A stretch of 64,000 nt of DNA from a virus (lineage: Duplodnaviria > Caudoviricetes). Below the pieces are notes generated by a model that was not told the origin of the DNA, made no database searches, and saw nothing but the letters and a program-made list of their open reading frames with translations. Positions within the stretch are counted from its first letter, which is position 1. Each line of letters opens with the position of its first letter. The DNA is taken from IMG/VR virus record IMGVR_UViG_3300035424_000154, positions 23,116 through 87,115 of that record; one strand, 5' to 3'. The position numbers were made by a program, and so were the translations under genes. This document shows positions 5,308 to 23,499 of this stretch, piece by piece.

Positions 5308-5691
5308 TTAGGTGTCCGATAATACGGACTTTTTCTGAGGCGGTATATCTTCATCGGAAAACGCATAGTCAAAGCCAATACGGAGAATCCCCATCATGCG
5401 CGTTTTATCCTTATCGGTCATACGCTCTCTGGCCCGCTGGAGGCTTATATAGTCAGGATCGCCCGCCAATGTGTCAGCGGTAGATTTGATATCGGAGACA
5501 CCAACCAAATAGTCGATGGAAACGTTAAAATAACTTGCAATTTTAGCAATTTTGTCGATAGTTGGAGAAACTGAGTGCTTCCACTTTGATATGGAAGAAG
5601 CGCTCATTCCCATTTCGGCCTCTAATTTGTTGAGAGTTATGTTATTTTCTGCACATAGTTCTTTGATTCTGGAGAAAATAATGGAGTCCAT
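5308..5691 (-). CDS. XRE-family HTH repressor (ImmR/cI-like)
   Basis: IKELCAENNITLNKLEAEMGMSASSISKWK...KIASYFNVSIDYLVG. Confidence 0.9.
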   Translation of the reverse strand: MDSIIFSRIKELCAENNITLNKLEAEMGMSASSISKWKHSVSPTIDKIAKIASYFNVSIDYLVGVSDIKSTADTLAGDPDYISLQRARERMTDKDKTRMMGILRIGFDYAFSDEDIPPQKKSVLSDT

Positions 5692-7402: not shown

Positions 7403-7708
7403 ATGAACAGTATGCTATTCAGCAAGCAGTCAGCGCCTACCCCCCCCATCTCGCACGACATTCTCATGGAAAAGCAGAACGAGGTGGCTCGGCTGGCCCG
7501 ACAAGCAAACGAGGCAGTTGACCTCGTGACCCGCACTATCAACGATTTGGAGGGTATCAACCAGCAGATCGACGGTGCATTGTCTGAGATCGACGCCTAC
7601 GCTCAGGAGCTGGCCGCGACTCGTGCGGCTATGTCCAAACAGCGGAGCAACAATACCGCTATCATTTCTAACTTCGCAAAGCTCCTGGATACCAGCAGCG
7701 CGGAGTAG
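7403..7708 (+). CDS. Small coiled-coil protein
   Basis: AAGGAG RBS; heptad-rich 101-aa ORF. Confidence 0.65.
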   Translation: MNSMLFSKQSAPTPPISHDILMEKQNEVARLARQANEAVDLVTRTINDLEGINQQIDGALSEIDAYAQELAATRAAMSKQRSNNTAIISNFAKLLDTSSAE

Positions 7709-7722
7709 TAACCAATGAGATT

Positions 7723-7776
7723 GGGACGCTAACAGCCATTTTACAATATCAATTTTTCTTTGACACAATGCGTCCT
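7723..7776 (+). ncRNA. Stand-alone stem-loop RNA A with ACAGC(C)A module
   Basis: GGGACGC(7723-29)/GCGTCCT(7770-76) terminal helix, TA-ACAGCCA after 5' strand, AAT before 3' strand; matches copy C. Confidence 0.65.
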
Positions 7777-7787
7777 ATGAAGCCCAT

Positions 7788-7878
7788 GGAGGGGTAAGCC
7801 TAATTGGTAAGGCCCCGGTTTGCTAAACCGGCAGTAACCCGAAAGGGCGTATGGGTTCGAGTCCCATCCCCTTCGCCA
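7788..7878 (+). tRNA. tRNA-Ser(GCT), canonical
   Basis: Acceptor GGAGGGG/CCCCTTC, CCGGT-TT GCT AA-ACCGG anticodon arm, long variable arm, GGTTCGAGTCC T-loop, G73 plus CCA. Confidence 0.95.
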
Positions 7879-7930
7879 GGACAGTGCATCCACACAGTCC
7901 ATAACAATGTGGAGAACTTCTGGCACCTCC

Positions 7931-7948
7931 TCTCTCTCTCTCTCTCTC
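7931..7948. repeat. (TC)9 microsatellite
   Basis: tctctctctctctctctc directly visible, upstream of the paired GAAAGA hairpins. Confidence 0.9.
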
Positions 7949-7996
7949 TTTGACGGCGGGAAAGACCGCTGACAGCCTGGAAAGACAGGCGCATAT

Positions 7997-8110
7997 GGGA
8001 AGCGTCTGGTAGGCAGCATTACAGTGTAATAGACGGCGGACACTTACAGCAATTTTACATAAAAAGACTTGAAATCTTTTGCTTGCGGTTCGACTCCGCA
8101 GCTCCCCACA
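7997..8110 (+). ncRNA. tRNA-like RNA B with inserted ACAGCAA module; retains TGA (Ser) anticodon hairpin
   Basis: Acceptor GGGAAGC/GCTCCCC, T-arm TGCGG-TTCGACT-CCGCA, AAAGA-CT TGA AA-TCTTT hairpin; module GACAC-TT-ACAGCAA at 8046-52 lies 5' of the hairpin. Confidence 0.75.
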
Positions 8111-8148
8111 AAGCCGTCATAGCGATTCTCAGAAAGGAGGTTCGTGCC

Positions 8149-8178
8149 GTGAACAGAGTACGCGACCAGACCATTTGA
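8149..8178 (+). CDS. Putative 9-aa micropeptide MNRVRDQTI
   Basis: AAGGAGG at 8134-40, 8 nt before GTG. Confidence 0.35.
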   Translation: MNRVRDQTI

Positions 8179-8288
8179 GCTATCTATGGAAAAATGTATT
8201 CGGCTGAAATGTATGGGGCGGTGCCCCGACAAAATGTGAACCGCTCACAAAAGTGCGGAAAATTGGGACGCAGTTAAGGAGGCTCTGC

Positions 8289-8318
8289 ATGAATAAAGCA
8301 CGAGACAAGCCCTGGTAG
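8289..8318 (+). CDS. Putative 9-aa micropeptide MNKARDKPW
   Basis: AAGGAGG at 8276-82, 6 nt before ATG; resembles 8149 peptide. Confidence 0.35.
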   Translation: MNKARDKPW

Positions 8319-8365
8319 CGGATGAACCAATCGTACATTCGATCTGATGATTTTTGAACAACATA

Positions 8366-8415
8366 TGGACGCTAACAGCAAATCATTCATAAATTTGAAA
8401 AACAAAATGCGTCCA
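8366..8415 (+). ncRNA. Stand-alone stem-loop RNA C with ACAGCAA module
   Basis: TGGACGC/GCGTCCA terminal helix; TA-ACAGCAA at 8375-81; AAT before 3' strand. Confidence 0.7.
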
Positions 8416-8457
8416 CTACACATCTGGCGAACGCCATTCATGGATATAGCGGTTTAT

Positions 8458-8514
8458 AGGGGCTTCCGTTTCCAATGTGTTTCAGATGACACAGACAGCA
8501 ATTAAAAAGCCCCT
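8458..8514 (+). ncRNA. Stem-loop RNA D with internal ACAGCAA module
   Basis: AGGGGCTT/AAGCCCCT closing helix enclosing AAT-GTGT..ACAC-AG-ACAGCAA (8495-8501). Confidence 0.65.
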
Positions 8515-8519
8515 GATAT

Positions 8520-8636
8520 GCGGGGATAGCTCAGTGGATAGAGCGGCGGTATAAGAAATGTGGAACGGGTATTTCACTAACAGCAAAATTCTTGGGGAAC
8601 CGTAAGTCGTAGGTTCGATTCCTACTCCCTGCACCA
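8520..8636 (+). ncRNA. tRNA-like RNA E (Pro-GGG-like) with 48-nt anticodon loop carrying the module
   Basis: GCGGGGA/TCCCTGC acceptor, TAGCTCAG..AGAGC D-arm, GCGGT/ACCGT anticodon stem, GTTCGATTC T-loop, ACCA end; loop ends TT GGG GA. Confidence 0.8.
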
Positions 8637-8720
8637 GCCGTTTGGGAACGGTGCATACAATCAAATCTCCTTTGCATGACGGTGGGAACGACCACTACTG
8701 CCGTGTAAGCGCGGCAATAT

Positions 8721-8840
8721 GCGGGCGTAGCTCAAGTGGTAGAGCAACCGACAATACAAAGTGTGTCATGGTATGACACCAACAGCAATTTCTTTGGAAA
8801 AATCAGTTTGTTGGAGGTTCGAGTCCTCCCGCCCGCATCA
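8721..8840 (+). ncRNA. tRNA-like RNA F (Phe-GAA-like) with 51-nt anticodon loop carrying the module
   Basis: GCGGGCG/CGCCCGC acceptor, canonical D and T arms, ACCGA/TCAGT stem, GTGTCAT/ATGACAC hairpin then ACAGCAA (8782-88); ends ATCA. Confidence 0.8.
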
Positions 8841-8843
8841 TAT

Positions 8844-8918
8844 GCCACTGTAGCTCAGTTGGTAGAGCGCTGCAAGACAATGTTCAGGCCGTCATTGGTT
8901 CGAGTCCAATCAGTGGCA
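8844..8918 (+). ncRNA. tRNA-like RNA G with degenerate anticodon arm, no module
   Basis: GCCACTG/CAGTGGC acceptor, canonical D and T arms, anticodon stem mismatched and loop non-canonical, no encoded CCA. Confidence 0.7.
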
Positions 8919-9099
8919 AGTTAATTTTTCACGAAGATGCAATCGCCAGCGTTGTGTCGGGAGTAAGTGGCTGGAAGTCCTCGAAGTACAAGGGGCCGTC
9001 TAAGGGTGTTCAGCAAAGGACGTAAAATAAGTGTAGTAACCGTGCAAATCGGAACGTCTGGGAAGTGTGCTACTCCCACCTGTGAGAGCCAGGATTATA

Positions 9100-9212
9100 T
9101 GTGTGGTGGCGGAATATGTAGACGCAAGTGGTTCAGGCGTGAGAACCGCCCGGAGTGTGCGCACACAAACGGCAGAAGACGCTTTGCGAGGTGAAAATCC
9201 TCGCCCACACAT
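9100..9212 (+). ncRNA. Leu-type tRNA-like RNA with expanded anticodon/variable region and atypical T-loop
   Basis: TGTGTGG/CCACACA acceptor, GCGGAATATGTAGACGC D-arm, GCGAGG-TGAAAAT-CCTCGC T-arm. Confidence 0.65.
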
Positions 9213-9219
9213 ATGATAA

Positions 9220-9337
9220 GCCAGGGTAGCTCAGTCGGTAGAGCACGTATCAATGCGTATCCAAGGAAACGCTTACAGCAATTTTTAAAAAGGACTTTTT
9301 AATCCCGTGGTCGTGGGTTCGAGTCCCACCCTTGGCA
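9220..9337 (+). ncRNA. tRNA-like RNA H (Lys-TTT-like) with 44-nt module inside the anticodon stem
   Basis: GCCAGGG/CCTTGGC acceptor; CG[9248-9291]GGA pairs with TCCCG; loop CTTTTTAA; ACAGCAA at 9275-81. Confidence 0.8.
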
Positions 9338-9456
9338 CAAAACGCTTTGTTTCTGGTTTCTTGGGCGTATAACCAACTAAACCAGCGGGGGCCAAATTTT
9401 CGGTGCAGACAACGATAAGTGGGAACCGATGACCGCTCGGAAAGACGAGCAATTAT

Positions 9457-9561
9457 GCCGGGATAGCTCAGCGGTAGAGCAGTATCGGACGGTACCGCCG
9501 ACAGAATGTACATTCTGGACATTTAATCTACAGGTGGCAGGTTCGACTCCTGCTCCCGGCG
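9457..9561 (+). ncRNA. tRNA-like RNA I with 33-nt two-hairpin insert inside the anticodon stem
   Basis: GCCGGGA/TCCCGGC acceptor; GTA[9485-9517]GA pairs with TCTAC; loop CA TTT AA; insert has degenerate ACAGAAT. Confidence 0.75.
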
Positions 9562-9566
9562 TTCAT

Positions 9567-9688
9567 GCGGCAGTGGTGAAGTGGTAACACAGCGGTCGTC
9601 GAAATGCGAAGTGCAAAATTTCGCTAACAGCAATTTTCGGACAAAGCCAAACCGCCATGCGCAGGTTCGATTCCTGCCTGCCGCTCCA
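9567..9688 (+). ncRNA. tRNA-like RNA J (Gly-GCC-like) with 54-nt anticodon loop carrying the module
   Basis: GCGGCAG/CTGCCGC acceptor, GCGGT/ACCGC stem, loop ends GCC AA, U73 plus CCA (Gly identity); ACAGCAA at 9627-33. Confidence 0.8.
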
Positions 9689-9690
9689 TT

Positions 9691-9730
9691 CTCTGAACAC
9701 AAACAGCAACAACGACAAACGTGTTCCGGG
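9691..9730 (+). ncRNA. Stem-loop K with ACAGCAA module in the leader of the DUF2828 gene
   Basis: GAACAC/GTGTTC helix, AA-ACAGCAA at 9703-09; about 13 nt before the AGGAGG RBS. Confidence 0.6.
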
Positions 9731-9757: not shown

Positions 9758-11317
9758 ATGAGCAACTTTATGGATGGACTCAAGAGCACTCTCAACGACG
9801 AGCGTTCTGTCACTGAGAACGGCGCGGTCGGGTTCCGCACTACGGGCCGGTCGCTGCTGGATCTGAACTTTGCTGTGGCCTCTCTGCGGAGCGCCAGTGA
9901 GAAGGATATCCAGAATCGCTTCTCCAAGGCATTCTTCGAGGATAAGCTGACGGCAATGAAATGGCTCTTTTATGCGCGTGATGTGCGCGGTGGCCTGGGT
10001 GAGCGGCGCTTGTTCCGCGCCTGCATGGTGCCGATGGCGAAGGAGTTCCCCGAGTACGTCCGGCCCATCGTCAAGCTGATCCCTGAGTATGGACGCTGGG
10101 ACGACCTGTGGTGCCTGCTGGACACGCCGGTGGCCGATGAGGTCATGCACAACGTATCTTTGCAGCTGACTGAGGACAACCACTTCTATGAGCAGAACCA
10201 GCCCATTTCTCTGCTGGCGAAGTGGATGCCGAGATGCAAGTGCCGGAACAAGGACAGGCGGCGTTATGCCACGATGTTGCGGGGATACCTTAACCTGACC
10301 GAGCGTGACTACCAGCACACGCTGTCTGCTCTGTGCCGCCACCTGAAGGTGGTTGAGATGGATATGTCGGCTCAGAACTGGGATGGCATTGACTATCAGC
10401 GTGTCCCCTCCCGTGCCAACCTGCAGTATAACAGTGCGTTCCTGCGGCACGACGAGGATCGGCGGCGGGCGTTCTTGGCGGCGGTTGAGAAGGGCGAAGC
10501 GAAGATCAACGCTTCTGTTCTGTTCCCTCATGATATCGTGCATCAGTATCGTCGTGCTGGCAGCGGCATTGACAGCAATCTGGAAATGCTGTGGAAAAAC
10601 CTGCCTGACATGGTGCAGGGTTGCGGCAATACCATCGTGGTGGCCGATGGTTCCGGCAGTATGAGTGTCAACGTGGGTGGTACCAACGTGTCTGCTCTGG
10701 AGGTCGCAAACGCACTGGCGATCTATTTTGCTGAGCGTTCCTCCGGCCAGTTCAAGGATCAGTATATCACCTTCTCTGAGCGTCCCCAGCTGGTGGATTT
10801 GAGCCACGGGAAGAATCTCCGCGAAAAGCTGAGGATTGCGGCAACTCATAACGAAGTTGCCAACACCAACGTCGAGGCGGTGTTTGACCTGATTCTTACC
10901 ACGGCAATTAACAAGCACATGGAGCAGAGCGAGTTGCCGGCCAATATCCTTATCATTTCTGATATGGAGTTTGACAGCTGCGCCACTACCAACGCTCAGC
11001 CTCGTAGGGGCTACAGCTGGGGGTACAGTAGCTGTGTGGCCCCTACTTCTACCCTGTTTGAGGTGATCGCCAAGCGATATGCTGACGCCGGATACCAGCT
11101 TCCTCGTCTGGTGTTCTGGAATGTCAATTCCCGTACTGGCACCATCCCTGTTAAGGAGAACGATTTGGGGGTCGCCCTGGTTAGTGGCTTTTCTCCCAAT
11201 GTCGCCAAGATGGTTATGAGCGGCAAGCTCGATCCCTATGATTGCCTGTTGGAGGCGATCAATGCTGAGCGGTATCAGCCGGTGGACGATGTTCTGCGGC
11301 CTGTAATTTTCACTTAG
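9758..11317 (+). CDS. DUF2828-family protein (TROVE/Ro60-like helical domain plus C-terminal VWA)
   Basis: TENGA, LFYARDVRGGLGERRLF, YGRWDDLW, LAKWMPR, RVPSRA, LFPHDIV, MIDAS DGSGS, ISDMEFD, FWNV, LVSGFSP; AGGAGG RBS. Confidence 0.85.
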   Translation: MSNFMDGLKSTLNDERSVTENGAVGFRTTGRSLLDLNFAVASLRSASEKDIQNRFSKAFFEDKLTAMKWLFYARDVRGGLGERRLFRACMVPMAKEFPEYVRPIVKLIPEYGRWDDLWCLLDTPVADEVMHNVSLQLTEDNHFYEQNQPISLLAKWMPRCKCRNKDRRRYATMLRGYLNLTERDYQHTLSALCRHLKVVEMDMSAQNWDGIDYQRVPSRANLQYNSAFLRHDEDRRRAFLAAVEKGEAKINASVLFPHDIVHQYRRAGSGIDSNLEMLWKNLPDMVQGCGNTIVVADGSGSMSVNVGGTNVSALEVANALAIYFAERSSGQFKDQYITFSERPQLVDLSHGKNLREKLRIAATHNEVANTNVEAVFDLILTTAINKHMEQSELPANILIISDMEFDSCATTNAQPRRGYSWGYSSCVAPTSTLFEVIAKRYADAGYQLPRLVFWNVNSRTGTIPVKENDLGVALVSGFSPNVAKMVMSGKLDPYDCLLEAINAERYQPVDDVLRPVIFT

Positions 11318-11337: not shown

Positions 11338-11392
11338 AAGGAGGTTTGAATAGAGAACATACGCATTGTACCGTTCCTGTTCAAACCTCCTT
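11338..11392. repeat. 13-bp perfect inverted repeat between DUF2828 and iscS-like genes
   Basis: AAGGAGGTTTGAA(11338-50)...TTCAAACCTCCTT(11380-92). Confidence 0.7.
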
Positions 11393-11412
11393 TGCTGTTA
11401 GGAGTGTGTAAA

Positions 11413-12561
11413 ATGATCTATCTGGACAACGCGGCCACAACTCCTACTTTCTCAGAGGTTTTGGAAGCCATGTTGCCATGGTTCCAGCCTGAGCGAGTGG
11501 GCAACCCTGGAAGTATTCATACCCAAGGCGTCAAAGCCCGTAACGCTGTTGAGAAAGCCCGTAAACAAGTGGCGCGGATGATTGGCGCTGAACCTTCTGA
11601 GATTTTTTTCACTTCTGGTGGAACAGAGTCCAACAACACATGGTTGCAATGTGCTAAAGACAGAGTTGTGCAGAGGCCAATTATCTTAACCACTAAGATT
11701 GAGCATCATTCTGTAATCGAGCCGATTGAACACAGTTCCTACCACCGTGCAGAGTATGTCAAGGTTTATCGTGACGGTTCAGTTAATCTTGACGACTTGG
11801 AACGGTTGCTCCAGCTTCATCGTGAAGAAGTTGGCGGCGTCTCCATTATGTGGGTGAATAATGAGCTGGGAACGGTCAACCCCATTAAAGAAATCGGAAC
11901 GCTTTGCAAAAAGTACAATGTGCTGTTCCATACAGATGCGGTACAGGCAGCAGGCCATGTTGCTATGGACGTTCATGATTGCAATGTGGACTTTCTTTCG
12001 CTCTCTGGTCACAAATTCGGCGCTCCTTTGGGTACTGGCGTGCTGTACATCAGTAACTCTATCCGAAAACATCCGTTGATCGTTGGTGGTGGACAAGAAC
12101 GAGAGATGCGAGGCGGCACAGAGAACGTACCCGGAATTGTGGGCATCGGTAGAGCCGCCGAGATCGTAACTGGCCGACTGTTGGTCAATAGGCAGTTGTG
12201 GAGCTACCATCGCTCTGTGTTTTTGACTGAGCTTGGTAAAAATATGTATGGGGAGTTCAAAATCAACGGCGACACAGAGAATTACCCTTCAAATATTATC
12301 AGCATGACGATTCCCGGCGTGAACAGTGAATCACTTTTGTTGCTGTTGGATCAGCAGGATGTTTATATCTCTGCTGGCTCTGCGTGTAGTGCGGCCAGTT
12401 CTGAACCTTCACACGTTTTGCAAGGGGTTGGGATTTCCAATGAAGATGCGGCTTGCACTGTGCGAATCTCTATGGGGTTTGCGCCCAGTTATGTCGATAT
12501 GGTGCAGGCAGCTGAAGTCATTGCAAACACAGTGCATAGGCTGAAATCTATGTATCCGTGA
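11413..12561 (+). CDS. iscS: Cysteine desulfurase (IscS/NifS group I)
   Basis: IYLDNAATT, FTSGGTES, HTDAVQAAG, SGHKF (PLP lysine), SAGSAC (catalytic Cys). Confidence 0.93.
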   Translation: MIYLDNAATTPTFSEVLEAMLPWFQPERVGNPGSIHTQGVKARNAVEKARKQVARMIGAEPSEIFFTSGGTESNNTWLQCAKDRVVQRPIILTTKIEHHSVIEPIEHSSYHRAEYVKVYRDGSVNLDDLERLLQLHREEVGGVSIMWVNNELGTVNPIKEIGTLCKKYNVLFHTDAVQAAGHVAMDVHDCNVDFLSLSGHKFGAPLGTGVLYISNSIRKHPLIVGGGQEREMRGGTENVPGIVGIGRAAEIVTGRLLVNRQLWSYHRSVFLTELGKNMYGEFKINGDTENYPSNIISMTIPGVNSESLLLLLDQQDVYISAGSACSAASSEPSHVLQGVGISNEDAACTVRISMGFAPSYVDMVQAAEVIANTVHRLKSMYP

Positions 12562-13017: not shown

Positions 13018-13345
13018 CTTAAATGTTTCTGCCATCCTTGACTTCATTAGCAATTTTAAGGATGCTCAGGACACATTTCTTTACGGTTGCTGTTACTGGT
13101 TCGCCTTTATCCTCAATGAGCGCTTTGGCGGGACGACGATGTATCTTCCAGTGGAAAATCACTTTGTTCAAGCAATAGGCAAGCGTTTATATGATGTATC
13201 TGGTGACGTAACGGCAGAATACCTAACCGCCAGGATTATTCCGTGGGCGGCGATGGAGCAATATGATTCAACCATGTACCGGAGGCTAATCCGGGACTGC
13301 ATCAATAAGGAGAGATTCGACGATGACAGTATTAACTCAGGATGA
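13007..13345 (+). CDS. Hypothetical protein
   Basis: FLYGCCYWFAFIL; overlaps upstream stop. Confidence 0.55.
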   Translation: METNLNVSAILDFISNFKDAQDTFLYGCCYWFAFILNERFGGTTMYLPVENHFVQAIGKRLYDVSGDVTAEYLTARIIPWAAMEQYDSTMYRRLIRDCINKERFDDDSINSG

Positions 13346-14190
13346 GCAGAAGCGCCAGAAGATTATGGCGCGTATGCAGGAACACTTGGTTCCCGTCCTG
13401 GAACATTGTAGGGGGGGGGTGGGTCGGCCTCTTTCTGCAAGGTTCCCAAAACTATAACCTTGATTATGAGGGAAGTGACATTGATACCAAAGCTATCTTG
13501 CTTCCCAGTTTTTCCGACTTTGTTTGGAACAGAAAACCAACCAGTACGACCCACATCATGGAAAATGATGAGCACGTAGATTTCAAGGATATTCGGCTCA
13601 TGTTTGACTGCTTCAAAAAGCAGAATGTCAACTTCGTCGAAATCCTGTTTACTCCCTACTGCATTATCAATCCTATGTATGAGGATCTGCTTCAGCCGGT
13701 GCTAGATGCCCGAGAGGAGATTGCCCGCTACAACAATTATGCTGGTATGAGGTGCATTATGGGTATGGCTTACGAGAAGCAGAAAGCAATGGAGCACCCC
13801 TACCCTGCCACAATCGACAAAATCAAAGTGTATGGATATGATCCGAAGCAACTCCATCATGCTTTGAGGCTGCGGGAGTTTATGACCAGATACATGGCCG
13901 GCGAAAATTATGCTGATTGCTTGGTTAGCAAACAGCGTGATTATTTGAAAGATGTAAAGAAGGGTTGTTACTCCCTGGACGAAGCTCGTGCTTTGATGAA
14001 TGTTACGATCAAATCCATGGCTGAGGATAAGCAGCAGTATATGGAGGCTGTTCCGGCCATTATCAATGAGCACGCCGACGAGGTGCTGAAAACGGCCACG
14101 GTTGAAATTCTCAAAAGGAGCTTCCTGAACGAGATTCAAAGAGGTGATCAAGTTGCAAACGTTTTACATGATGGTTGGCCTGCCCGGTAG
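13323..14190 (+). CDS. Pol-beta superfamily nucleotidyltransferase, frameshifted at G9 (13411-19)
   Basis: GSQNYNLDYEGSDIDTK (GS..DxD); RBS plus ATG 13323 joins the main frame only if the tract is G8. Confidence 0.75.
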
Positions 14191-15070
14191 TGGTAAATCA
14201 CTCACTGCCAGGACTTTCCCCAATACCATCATCCATTCCAGCGATGCAATCCGTGCGGAAATCTTGGGTGACGAGAACCGGCAAGACCAACAAGAGCTGG
14301 TGTTCCAGACGCTTCACGAGCGAGTGCTGAATGATCTGGCAAGCGGCAAGAATGTCGTGTATGACGCCACCAATATCAACTACAAGCGTCGTATGGAGTT
14401 CTTGCAGCAGGTAAACGCGATGAAGCTCCCCAGCCTTAGAACGGTCTGTGTCTTTTTGACCACTCCGTATGAGGAGTGCATAGAGCGCAATGCCAACCGA
14501 GAGCGCTCTGTTCCAAGGTCTGTAATTCGTAGAATGTATGAGAAAATCGACATTCCTATGAAAGCAGAAGGATGGGACGAAATTTGGGTTTTTGGCGACA
14601 TAAAGGATTACTATGGCCGGTTAGAAACCTTTATGAGCCATCTGTCCAAGCTGGAGCATGATAATCCCCACCATACATACACAGTCGGTCAGCATTGTAT
14701 GGCGGCATGGCAATACCTGATCAGCCACTATAAGGACTACGATGCTTGTCTGCTCCGTGCCACTCTCTTGCACGATATCGGCAAGGAAAAAACCAAAGTG
14801 TTCTATGACACTAAAGGCAACCCCACGGATATTGCCCACTACTATCATCATGAGCGTGTGGGCGCTTATGACAGTTTCTGCTACACCAGCGATCTCAGCA
14901 ATGACCAACGCCTGATGGTTGCGCTTTTGATTCGCTGGCATATGTGGCCGTATGTAGTGGAAAAGTCAGATAACCCGAACAAAACCGCTCGTAAAGTGCG
15001 GCGGTTGCTCGGTGAAGATATCTGGAAGCAGGTTGCGGTCTTGAATGACTGTGATCGACACGCACACTAA
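14144..15070 (+). CDS. Polynucleotide-kinase-like P-loop (AAA_33) plus HD domain
   Basis: GLPGSGKS, SSDAIR, YDATN; HHTYTVGQH, LLHDIGK, HHERVGA. Confidence 0.85.
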   Translation: MIKLQTFYMMVGLPGSGKSLTARTFPNTIIHSSDAIRAEILGDENRQDQQELVFQTLHERVLNDLASGKNVVYDATNINYKRRMEFLQQVNAMKLPSLRTVCVFLTTPYEECIERNANRERSVPRSVIRRMYEKIDIPMKAEGWDEIWVFGDIKDYYGRLETFMSHLSKLEHDNPHHTYTVGQHCMAAWQYLISHYKDYDACLLRATLLHDIGKEKTKVFYDTKGNPTDIAHYYHHERVGAYDSFCYTSDLSNDQRLMVALLIRWHMWPYVVEKSDNPNKTARKVRRLLGEDIWKQVAVLNDCDRHAH

Positions 15071-15666: not shown

Positions 15667-16644
15667 ATGATGACGACAATAACGGGAATTGGGGAGGTGG
15701 GTGTTTTGCATAGTCGAGAGCAATTAGAAGAAATGCAGCGCCTACCTCTTTCCCGTAAAATCCAGATCACCACGGCCAGAATTATTGAGTGGTACCAACA
15801 CTACGATGGCAAGGTTTATGTGGCTTTTTCTGGCGGCAAGGACTCAACAGTTCTCCTTGATATTGTACGGCGCATCTATCCTGATGTGCCAGCAGTATTT
15901 TCGGACACTGGATTGGAGTTTCCAGAAGTTAGAGCATTTGCCAGGAGTTGCGAAAATGTCACCATTATCAAACCTGAGATGAATTTCCGGCAGGTCATTG
16001 AGAAGTACGGATACCCTGTTGTTTCTAAACGTGTGGCTGACGCCGTGAAATACGGTCATAAGCCAGGGTCTTTTCGCTGGAAGGAGCTACATGGCGAAAT
16101 TATGCGGAGCAACGGGACTCCTTCAGAGTTCAACTGTGAGAAATGGTGCTATCTGCTCAACGCACCCTTTAAGGTGTCTGCTCGGTGTTGTGCCGTCATG
16201 AAAAAGCGGCCTATGAAGAAATATTCCAAAGAAACCGGGCGAGTGCCTATCATTGCGACAATGGCAGACGAAAGCCGATCCCGTCGTGCTACTTGGTTGC
16301 GTTTGGGGTGTAACGCTTTTGCTGCCAAAAAGCCCAGCTCTCAACCTATGTCATTCTGGACTGAGGACGATGTACTTGAATATCTCTATACCTACAAAAT
16401 TCCCTATGCCTCGGTTTATGGCGAGATCGTCAAGACTGACGGGGGGGGGTGGACAACAACCGGAGAAAAACGTACTGGTTGTGTCTTTTGTGCCTTTGGT
16501 GCTCATTTGGAAAAGGCTCCAAACCGTTTCCAGCGACTAAAGGTTACTCACCCGAAACTCTGGAATTATTGTATGAAGCCATGGGAAGAACATGGCTTGG
16601 GTATGCGGCGAGTGCTTGAGTACATTGGAGTCCCAATAGAATAA
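15667..16644 (+). CDS. PAPS-reductase-family (PP-loop) protein
   Basis: VAFSGGKDSTVL, FSDTGLEFPE, CC pair, RTGCVFC. Confidence 0.85.
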   Translation: MMTTITGIGEVGVLHSREQLEEMQRLPLSRKIQITTARIIEWYQHYDGKVYVAFSGGKDSTVLLDIVRRIYPDVPAVFSDTGLEFPEVRAFARSCENVTIIKPEMNFRQVIEKYGYPVVSKRVADAVKYGHKPGSFRWKELHGEIMRSNGTPSEFNCEKWCYLLNAPFKVSARCCAVMKKRPMKKYSKETGRVPIIATMADESRSRRATWLRLGCNAFAAKKPSSQPMSFWTEDDVLEYLYTYKIPYASVYGEIVKTDGGGWTTTGEKRTGCVFCAFGAHLEKAPNRFQRLKVTHPKLWNYCMKPWEEHGLGMRRVLEYIGVPIE

Positions 16645-22728: not shown

Positions 22729-23499
22729 ATGGTTACACAATCGAATAATTGTATACATGATGACTGTGTACATTGTAAAGATGGTAGTTGTAATTGTTTA
22801 TCAGATGGTACATTCTTCGGAGATAATTGTCCTCTTTATCGAAGGTTTTATTTGAACAAAGTTGAAATCTGTGATGCAATGGAAGCTCTTGATCGGATTA
22901 AAGGAGTCGCGGATCTACTTGTAACAGATCCACCATATAAAACAATTACGGGTGGGGACTCTGATGGTAAAAACTCTGTTCGTCCAAAGGGGATGTTGGG
23001 CGGGAACCGAAAACTGTTTGATTATCAAACAGAATTAAAACCATCTGATTGGATGTCAAAGGTATACGCTGCGTTAAAAGACAACACTCAAGCGTACATA
23101 TTTACTAATGTACTCAATTTGGAGGAGATGCTGGCAGCAGCAAGAAGCGTAGGATTTAAGCTACACAATGTTTTGGTCTGGGAAAAGAATAACTGTACTC
23201 CTTCACAATACTACATGAAGAACTGTGAGTATATTCTCTTCCTTCGTAAAGGTAAAGCAAAATACGTCAATAACATTGGAGCGAGCAAAACAGTTCACCA
23301 ATTTGCGAATGTTCGAGGGAAGCGTCATCCGTGTGAAAAGCCAGTTGATTTATTGCGATTCTATATTGAAAATTCAAGTATCCCTGGTGATATCGTGTTA
23401 GATCCCTTTGCAGGATGTGGAAGCACTATGGAAGCGGCATTATCGTGTGGTCGAGATTTTGTGGGGTTTGAAATCAATCCTCAATGGAGGGCAAATTAA
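22729..23499 (+). CDS. N4/N6 DNA methyltransferase (beta class)
   Basis: TDPPY motif IV, HPCEKP, VLDPFAGCGST motif I. Confidence 0.88.
   Translation: MVTQSNNCIHDDCVHCKDGSCNCLSDGTFFGDNCPLYRRFYLNKVEICDAMEALDRIKGVADLLVTDPPYKTITGGDSDGKNSVRPKGMLGGNRKLFDYQTELKPSDWMSKVYAALKDNTQAYIFTNVLNLEEMLAAARSVGFKLHNVLVWEKNNCTPSQYYMKNCEYILFLRKGKAKYVNNIGASKTVHQFANVRGKRHPCEKPVDLLRFYIENSSIPGDIVLDPFAGCGSTMEAALSCGRDFVGFEINPQWRAN

Follow-up and report, generated by a model that had tools for sequence, protein, structure and literature searches.

A short ACAGCAA-bearing RNA handle, wired in two ways, accompanies the gene of a Ro60-like protein in phages

A stretch of 64,000 nucleotides (nt) from a virus of the Caudoviricetes (Duplodnaviria; IMG/VR record IMGVR_UViG_3300035424_000154, positions 23,116 to 87,115), hereafter called the window, contains a 2-kb non-coding array between a small gene ending at 7708 and a gene encoding a DUF2828/DUF7788 protein (9758-11317), in which a short RNA module typified by the sequence ACAGCAA recurs in two connectivities. 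The module, termed the handle here, is kept beside DUF2828 genes of many phages, and probably serves a phage Ro60-like protein as the docking site on its Y-RNA-like partners, where the binding is proposed by analogy with known particles. The window is part of an 87-kb phage record that is 63% complete, and its sequence is present in many mouse-gut metagenomes.

Relatives of the array were gathered in three ways, by DUF2828 homology, by DNA pattern and from cultured phages. Common to both wirings (83 unique ends-type and 38 hairpin-type copies) is a helix of 7 base pairs (bp) with the eighth position unpaired; strand X follows AAU, and ACAGCAA stands between UA and a U-rich stretch. The order in the ends-type is X', NN, ACAGCAA, an AU-rich interior, AAU and X, while the hairpin-type reads AAU-X-loop-X'-NN-ACAGCAA. 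The distal helix consensus, AAGAC/GUCUU and then G, is the same in both wirings, the helix commonly being AAGACNN/NNGUCUU+G, and many hairpin copies read NNGUCUU-G..A-AAGACNN, which is an ends-type handle with its termini joined by a few nt. This shared design, together with the covariation described below, bears out an earlier note on this DNA, made from the sequence alone, which had described one module in two circularly permuted topologies.

The sequence of the helix varies with pairing kept, as the same note had claimed, and compensatory changes are found at all seven pairs in both topologies. In the model-based alignments, 99.8% of cells are paired among 130 distinct ends-type sequences, with 235 doubly changed cells against 55 in shuffles, and 91% are paired among 114 distinct hairpin-type sequences, with 251 doubly changed cells against 87. 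As such alignments are fitted to the model, hand-made seed alignments were also counted and agree, so that covariation, judged by counts of compensatory changes, is strong in both topologies and in both kinds of alignment. The hairpin-type alignment is a curated subset with model-based realignment, replacing a 40-copy MAFFT alignment in which the 5' strand was misplaced in short rows. In a control free of alignment, a helix of at least 7 bp is present at 101 of 186 unique ACAGCAA sites, compared with 15.4 after shuffling of strand X'. The strand of the DUF2828 gene carries all of the model matches, 142 of the ends-type and 131 of the hairpin-type (273 vs 0 on the other), and the G-U pairs are compatible with the + strand only, which places the structure in RNA rather than in DNA. 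With pairing kept, single strands shared and a tie to the DUF2828 gene, the comparative data fit the earlier suggestion of a protein-binding structural element rather than a duplicated sequence.

The connectivity follows the kind of cargo, as one handle is used in two ways. A T arm follows 50 of 58 hairpin-type copies, which thus lie inside genes shaped like those of transfer RNA (tRNA), while a T arm is rare within ends-type copies (10 of 221). Where an acceptor stem uses the RNA's one pair of ends, the handle has to be closed by a loop; when there is no acceptor stem, the handle helix itself closes the RNA. Tandem duplication may have been the evolutionary route between the two, as the junction in an ends-type array (AAU-X-spacer-X'-NN-ACAGCAA) already has the hairpin form. 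In one relative (L001, 5659-5778), a handle-like hairpin (GUGCGUCU...AGGCGUG-A-ACAGCAA) is located in the D loop of a tRNA-shaped RNA whose anticodon arm has a 5-nt loop only, and the handle is thus not confined to the anticodon arm.

All nine copies of ACAGC(A/C)A that had been listed for the array (7732-9709) were recovered in place on the + strand; the RNAs that carry them are lettered in Table 1 as in the earlier note. ACAGCAA is found 33 times in the window, where 11.6 copies would be expected; eight exact copies are clustered on one strand over 1.66 kb (8046-9709), compared with about 0.15 predicted from the shuffle mean. The assignment of A, C and K to the ends-type, with a helix formed by the outer strands, stands, as the minimum-free-energy structures of RNAfold contain each helix, and that of D, E, F, H and J to the hairpin-type is upheld by a covariance model built from relatives, two of the six window copies being members of its seed. 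Over the 64 kb this model gives exactly six copies, all on the + strand (E from 7e-8 to 0.014; next match at E 0.86), the additional one being the copy at 8046 in B, which had been left unassigned and is also of the hairpin-type (GUGU/ACAC, 12-nt loop). In K, the strand follows AAC in place of the AAU of the consensus. Most module helices are recovered by RNAfold; in E, the helix is absent from the minimum-free-energy fold. Five of the six hairpin-type copies are inside tRNA-shaped RNAs (B, E, F, H and J), while the sixth, D, is free-standing, its predicted fold having an energy of -19 kcal/mol (z -3.55). An outer helix (P1) around the hairpin-type handle was rejected as a defining part, as it is present in D, E (AAGAA/UUCUU) and J, and absent in H and its orthologues. 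The candidacy of A and C as sigma-70 promoters was also rejected, their -10 matches being poor.

Table 1. Handle-bearing RNAs of the array and neighbouring genes in the co-directional run, with positions in the window. Bits are covariance model scores; RF00005 is the Rfam tRNA family, and each complete RF00005 match has the position of its RNA.
Feature	Kind	Position	Strand	Handle	Make-up	Matches
A	ends-type handle RNA	7723-7776	+		GGGACGC-UA-ACAGCCA, 28-nt AU-rich interior, AAU-GCGUCCU	ends-type model 40.6 bits (seed member)
B	tRNA-shaped RNA	7997-8108	+	8019-8055	acceptor stem with one A-C mismatch, T arm	hairpin model 21.6 bits, E 0.0018; partial Rfam tRNA match 8038-8108, 18 bits
C	ends-type handle RNA	8366-8415	+		UGGACGC-UA-ACAGCAA, 24-nt interior, AAU-GCGUCCA	ends-type model 50.6 bits (seed member)
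D	free-standing closed element	8457-8515	+	8472-8504	outer helix AGGGGCUU/AAGCCCCU around AAU-GUGUU...GACAC-AG-ACAGCAA, without tRNA body	hairpin model 18.4 bits, E 0.014
E	tRNA-shaped RNA	8520-8633	+	8555-8589	handle at 5' side of anticodon loop	RF00005 54.4 bits with 46-nt insert; hairpin model 33.4 bits
F	tRNA-shaped RNA	8721-8837	+	8758-8791	helix GUGUCAU/AUGACAC	RF00005 48.7 bits with 50-nt insert; hairpin model 32 bits (not a seed member)
H	tRNA-shaped RNA	9220-9337	+	9250-9284	handle in 5' strand of anticodon stem (between CG and GGA)	RF00005 47.9 bits with 58-nt insert; hairpin model 25.4 bits
J	tRNA-shaped RNA	9567-9685	+	9601-9636	helix GCGAAGU/AUUUCGC	RF00005 49.7 bits with 53-nt insert; hairpin model 37.7 bits
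K	short ends-type copy	9695-9726	+		GAACAC-AA-ACAGCAA, 11 nt ending in AAC, GUGUUC	ends-type model 15.3 bits (weak)
DUF2828 + DUF7788 protein	gene, 519 amino acids; proposed handle partner	9758-11317	+			Pfam; PHROG 850 'RNA-binding protein'
Nucleotidyltransferase	gene, RNA end-healing type	13342-14190	+			
Polynucleotide-kinase-like AAA_33 + HD protein	gene, RNA end-healing type	14144-15070	+			

The tie between the handle and the DUF2828 protein is seen in 80 loci picked by DUF2828 homology alone (54-81% identity). Helix-backed handles lie 5' of DUF2828 on the same strand in 78 of these loci, and their upstream regions contain 433 copies of ACAGCAA on the gene strand compared with 16 on the opposite one; of the two loci that deviate, L273 has its handles just downstream of DUF2828. 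Handles are also found at loci where the DUF2828 protein is of only 34-45% identity, and DUF2828 is the sole gene found in every distant handle locus. In the whole genomes of Escherichia phage garuso, Listeria phage LP-048 and Mycobacterium phage Halena, every match of the ends-type model at E≤0.01 is within 0.6 kb of DUF2828 and on its strand. The 7.4-kb stretch examined in Halena contains no annotated tRNA, which ties the handle to the protein and not to tRNA arrays. Homologues of DUF2828 are present in 706 cultured-phage records, including Felixounavirus, Listeria P100-type and Staphylococcus phages as well as mycobacteriophages, the homologues of the last being named 'Ro-like RNA binding protein' by GenBank annotators. 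In L073 (2551-4239, - strand) and L004 (3705-5384, + strand), the DUF2828 homologue has one in-frame stop within an otherwise full-length match, for which recoding, an error of sequencing or a pseudogene may be the reason.

The AlphaFold2 model of the DUF2828 protein (predicted local distance difference test score 82.5) is Ro60-like, with a TROVE ring plus a vWA domain. The top 12 Foldseek matches in the PDB are all Ro60/TROVE structures (E 2e-8 to 5e-5, template-modelling score about 0.4-0.57, 11-16% identity), followed by vWA domains. The family relation is distant despite the alike fold, as Pfam assigns the protein to DUF2828/DUF7788 and not to TROVE; its sequence gave nothing against the PDB by phmmer and profile search, the likeness to Ro60 coming only from the fold search, and the ESM Atlas returned only the protein's own clusters.

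The cargo of the handle resembles tRNA or its anticodon arm. A stem of at least 4 bp with a canonical 7-nt YU-NNN-R-N loop is present in 29 of 83 ends-type interiors, compared with 3.7 in shuffles. These stems are of 4-6 bp and start 9-11 nt after ACAGCAA, and their loops obey Y32, U33 and R37, including CUUUUAA (Lys), UUUGGGU (Pro, G37 being as expected), CUGCUAA and CUUGAAA (both Ser), CUGUUAA (Asn) and CUUGUAA (Thr); the interiors of A and C in the window show no clear anticodon-arm mimic. C has an orthologue in L001 that keeps the helix with a G-U pair, and A lies between the stop of the upstream gene and a tRNA-Ser(GCU).

Six tRNAs are matched by Rfam in the array, four of which (E, F, H and J; 48-54 bits) have extra nt in the anticodon arm. 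Their acceptor, D and T arms match, the anticodon arm is broken by 46-58 nt, and the best deletion gives canonical loops in some and not in others; ARAGORN detects the interrupted tRNAs, E among them, only with introns allowed, and places the inserts inconsistently. The anticodon arm of B is intact 3' of the handle (8062-8080), with the loop CUUGAAA (Ser UGA-like), and orthologues of B and J are present in L001 and L002. E retains the loop UUGGGGA or AUGGGGA (Pro GGG-like), while the loop 3' of the handle in J is AAGCCAA (Gly GCC-like, with A at position 33), and no single deletion yields a canonical anticodon loop in F. J-type loops keeping A33, and F with no canonical solution, thus look unlike decoding tRNAs. 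H displays the Lys-like 8-nt loop CUUUUUAA, and an 8-nt loop is also kept in its L001 orthologue. Seventeen orthologues of the H family keep the body and the insertion point in the 5' strand of the anticodon stem, with the loops CUGUUAA, CUUGUAA, A/CUUUUAA, CUUCUAA or the 8-nt CUUUUUAA (Asn, Thr, Lys and Arg types). Such a change of anticodon within one tRNA body would fit a displayed, exchangeable cargo better than a decoding tRNA. Between near-identical phages, the same tRNA-shaped RNA has the loop CUGUUAA in L258 and L259 (2478) and CUUCUAA in L260 (2505), with unchanged flanks, which is a recent switch of cargo.

The end of K is 17 nt 5' of the Shine-Dalgarno sequence of the DUF2828 gene, and a handle about 59 nt or 83-103 nt from the DUF2828 start codon recurs in most of the 80 protein-chosen loci. 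K may close the series of RNAs in the array, or it may serve autoregulation.

Y RNAs, which are adjacent and mimic tRNA, are known to be bound by Ro60 proteins through a stem that the two ends of the RNA make up (PMC4201824), and it is from this analogy that the handle is taken to be the probable docking site. The DUF2828 protein would dock on the 7-bp helix with AAU and NN-ACAGCAA, and the carrier RNAs would be functional analogues of Y RNAs. For small cargo, typically a bare anticodon-arm mimic, the handle helix is built from the RNA's 5' and 3' termini, as in the Y-RNA stem, while for a whole tRNA-shaped cargo the same strands are joined by a loop of 3-6 nt and the handle projects from the anticodon arm as a side hairpin. 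A protein reading the helix and the single strands on the junction side could bind both forms. The particle would then display look-alikes of tRNAs or anticodon arms to something else, and its most likely use, which is speculative, may lie in the contest of phage and host over tRNAs, where enzymes of defence or repair that target tRNAs would meet it as a decoy or adaptor.

Several points weigh against this docking. The linkage could reflect a shared operon and not a complex, and the handle is unlike the known Ro60-binding helix, with no match to a Y RNA or YrlA model at gathering score. Dictyostelium RNAs with the same stem and ACAGCAA are reported to bind Rnp1A/CIBP, a protein with RNA-recognition motifs (RRM), and not a Ro-like protein (PMC7919456). 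Exact removal of the insert restores a canonical tRNA in B, in E and in the L002 orthologue of H (loop CUGUUAA), as would be seen with an intron, and the RNA sequencing evidence consists of contigs only, which are compatible with spliced forms.

A wider proposal, which is put forward tentatively and is rather doubtful, is that the handle may be a universal docking tag for DUF2828-type proteins, spanning phages of Gram-negative, Gram-positive and actinobacterial hosts as well as the Class I RNAs of social amoebae, and that phages may deploy arrays of tagged, fast-switching anticodon mimics, in the role of decoys or adaptors, against immunity that targets tRNAs, for instance anticodon nucleases and Ppl. 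As the tag would work in either connectivity, any tRNA or bare anticodon arm could be tagged. If this is true, the key partner of the Class I RNAs would be an overlooked Ro-like protein.

It is unlikely, though the strongest of the alternatives, that the hairpin inserts are tRNA introns of a new class, small (about 41-58 nt) and spliced by proteins, where the handle would be the signal for an endonuclease and ligase, and the ends-type copies would serve excision, and perhaps circularisation, of the interior, as with the archaeal bulge-helix-bulge. The inserts are in or beside the anticodon arm, with one in the D loop (that of L001 described above), and resemble archaeal non-canonical introns; their exact deletion restores canonical anticodon arms in several cases, and healing enzymes of the kinase/phosphatase type adjoin, with RtcB near DUF2828 in a Listeria phage. 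However, a bulge-helix-bulge was not seen on inspection of four inserts and folds, and neither an RtcB nor an Rnl2 ligase was found in the 87-kb record, which is 63% complete. The loops of F, of J with its orthologues and of H, as well as the variation of the anticodon within one tRNA body, do not suit splicing, and most handles are outside tRNAs (221 unique ends-type vs 75 hairpin-type). Contigs from four RNA libraries of four studies span the array and include the inserts, none of which is skipped by any contig; the joints reported at 8873->9309 and 7741->7786 were rejected, as they belong to tRNA-like contigs of other organisms, with foreign letters between the two sides. One library has contigs that run into sequencing adapter at 7774, which is the foot of helix A, and at 8786/8787, within the ACAGCAA of F, the latter end being in favour of introns. 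Uncovered regions and depth were left out of account. As DNA carry-over is possible and mature tRNAs are poorly captured, the contigs are weak evidence either for or against splicing. An intron is a weaker reading of the inserts than a docking handle.

That the handle is a processing or stability element of a polycistronic tRNA-array transcript, a terminal stem acting as an exonuclease stop or RNase guide with no specific tie to the Ro60-like protein, is improbable. A T arm lies just upstream of 64 of 221 ends-type copies, an RNA contig that covers the upstream gene stops at 7774, where helix A has its foot, and the conserved termini (U/A-AAGAC ... GUCUUG) could be marks of cleavage or trimming. 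Such a role leaves the invariant single-stranded ACAGCAA and AAU unexplained, as well as the hairpin copies buried in tRNA-shaped RNAs, and the element follows DUF2828 into Halena, a phage without a nearby tRNA array, and is found nowhere else in the three whole phage genomes.

There is likewise little probability that the handle is bound by a protein other than DUF2828, either an RRM-type protein of host or phage or the neighbouring nucleotidyltransferase or kinase, with DUF2828 acting on other RNAs. Class I RNAs share the stem and ACAGCAA (RF01414) and directly bind Rnp1A/CIBP, and the nucleotidyltransferase and kinase are also conserved in many loci; however, IscS, the nucleotidyltransferase and the kinase were not found in the examined stretches of L176, L197, L058, L123, L046 and L032, all of which contain handles and DUF2828, and the stretches of garuso and Halena have no annotated kinase or nucleotidyltransferase, though many of the neighbours there are 'hypothetical'. 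Finally, it is highly improbable that the repeats work as DNA elements such as operators, recombination sites or promoter parts, with the helix a mere inverted repeat, since, although inverted repeats also keep complementarity and the AU-rich interiors sometimes contain TTGACA-like hexamers, the strand bias of motif copies (433 vs 16) and model matches (273 vs 0), the G-U pairs working on the + strand only, the copies within tRNA-shaped genes and the presence of the region in RNA libraries all point to RNA.

Other features of the array were also recorded. Searches of the array region returned only tRNA-level matches by blastn against cultured phages, and only tRNA, plus sub-threshold YrlA and Class I matches, in Rfam at gathering thresholds and at E≤10, without a match to any family of ribozymes, introns or riboswitches. 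Between two tRNA-like genes, a non-coding block of about 225 nt (8995-9219) is about 93% identical to L001 5085-5291, while the DUF2828 protein of the same relative is only 67% identical. This block has no Rfam match and is covered by RNA contigs, and the hairpin just 5' of H shows a compensatory change (GCGAGG..CCUCGC vs GUGAGG..CCUCAC); it may be another structured RNA of the array. The RNA at 9459-9553 (I in the earlier note) is tRNA-shaped with a different insert of 26-33 nt, which contains two palindromes (CGGTACCG; CAGAATGTACATTCTG) and the variant motif ACAGAAU, and is matched by neither handle model. An otherwise normal tRNA without handle (8844-8918) has the 8-nt anticodon loop AGACAAUG, for which ARAGORN gives the four-base anticodon 'acaa'. 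Hairpins with a GAAAGA loop (GCCUG-GAAAGA-CAGGC and GCUCG-GAAAGA-CGAGC) are located at 7974-7989 and 9434-9449, and also at 8690-8705 and in L001 at 5508-5523; they sit 5-7 nt 5' of the 5' ends of tRNA-shaped genes and may be leader or processing signals. The sequence GGAAAGAC has six copies in the window, three of them in the array, and a (CT)n dinucleotide run is present at 7931-7952, between the tRNA-Ser and B, and was skipped as a repeat in the mapping of reads.

The nucleotidyltransferase and kinase genes are kept beside DUF2828 in many related loci, and Listeria phage LP-048 has an RtcB ligase gene 1.3 kb downstream. A cysteine-desulfurase-like gene (Aminotran_5, 11392-12561) and a PAPS-reductase-family gene (15667-16644), the latter 84-90% identical in relatives, accompany the DUF2828 cluster in many relatives, and their role may be the thiolation of RNA or DNA.

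Ro60/Y-RNA particles are a classic and still poorly understood RNA-surveillance system, and what is described here looks like a second, very widespread version of it, whose RNA partner has a sharply defined short sequence and structure and stays below the gathering score of every Rfam family. The particular contribution of the present array is the topology rule, with the connectivity chosen by the kind of cargo; no published description of the phage handle was found in the literature on DUF2828, the motif, Ro-like proteins and phage Y RNAs. The rule predicts a minimal binding unit of the helix with the AAU and ACAGCAA strands, where ends are optional, and explains why such RNAs are missed in annotation or called as tRNAs with odd inserts or 'tRNA-OTHER'. 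It also offers a testable link between a counter-defence gene (gp130 of phage Bas63, acting against Ppl), tRNA mimicry and possibly the orphan Class I RNAs of Dictyostelium.

Among the known systems with which the handle was compared, group I and II introns, of at least 200 nt with a ribozyme core, do not correspond to the inserts of 41-58 nt, and no intron or ribozyme family is matched at E≤10 (Rfam). The archaeal bulge-helix-bulge serves tRNA introns, permuted and split tRNA genes and the circularisation of rRNA. Like the handle, it is one small signal used in two connectivities, where what is inside is either the removed piece or the product, and has varied insert positions in tRNAs. The phage junctions differ in being an asymmetric pair of a 3-nt and an approximately 9-11-nt loop by a 7-bp helix, in place of two 3-nt bulges and a 4-bp helix, and in using conserved sequence (ACAGCAA, AAU) in a bacterial host, with contigs that show no sign of excision.

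The closest RNA design is that of the dictyostelid Class I RNAs (RF01414), which are of about 60 nt, with a covarying 6-bp end stem, a conserved 11-nt single-stranded motif after its 5' strand and a variable rest, and are reported to be confined to Dictyostelia and to have an RRM protein bound to them (Kjellin et al. 2021, PMC7919456). Their RF01414 consensus, GaUcuC-CUU-ACAGCAA-U...GagAuC-UG, has the same layout as the copies of Listeria phages when aligned to them, and shares with the ends-type an ACAGCAA 2-3 nt after the end stem and a G after the 3' strand. An end stem with a CCUUACAGCAA-like motif 3' of its 5' strand is likewise present in the ends-type copies, as A, C and K read stem, 2 nt and ACAGC(A/C)A. 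The scores stay below the gathering threshold of 41.5 bits, with 17.9 in the window, 23.1 and 18.5 in L311 and no match for A or C. Class I genes are individually transcribed with a DUSE promoter about 60 nt upstream, a eukaryotic element not applicable to a phage array, while the phage copies are processed from arrays, and a hairpin-type or tRNA-embedded form is not known for Class I RNAs.

In the Felixounavirus Bas63, gp130 is a Ro60-like protein encoded directly upstream of a tRNA stretch and counters the Ppl defence, and its authors suggested that some of the 'tRNAs' may be Y RNAs, while describing no RNA motif (bioRxiv 10.1101/2024.10.10.617714). This layout is shared by the Felixounavirus garuso, whose tRNAs have ends-type handles between them, and from it gp130 is presumably a DUF2828 orthologue.

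The closest functional analogue of the handle system is Ro60/Y RNA, which includes metazoan Y RNAs, Yrn1 of D. radiodurans and the YrlA and YrlB of bacteria and mycobacteriophages. YrlA is itself a tRNA mimic in circularly permuted form, and its orientation differs from that of Yrn1 (Chen et al. 2014, PMC4201824). Phage TROVE proteins are found in a gene context of RNA repair and tRNA conflict (PMC7824862), with which the nucleotidyltransferase and kinase-HD genes of the window are in keeping. The phage system differs from these in that its protein belongs to DUF2828/DUF7788 and not to TROVE, its RNA site is unrelated in sequence to the Ro-binding helix, its handle is also an internal hairpin of otherwise complete tRNA-shaped RNAs, and its elements, which have bare anticodon arms for cargo, form arrays with as many as about ten members. 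No RF00019 (Y_RNA) or RF02553 (YrlA) match covers the handle, though the ends-type closes by an end stem, and the only YrlA match (27.5 bits against a gathering score of 69) consists of the T arm plus the D arm of two adjacent tRNAs. A tRNA-mimic domain, as in Y RNAs, is present, both in the four Rfam tRNA matches around an insert and in the enriched anticodon-arm mimics. In both systems a ring protein of Ro60 fold, which for the phages is a predicted fold in a distant family, is encoded beside one or more small RNAs, the end stem carries the conserved site, the remainder mimics parts of a tRNA, and RNA-repair genes such as RtcB are associated.

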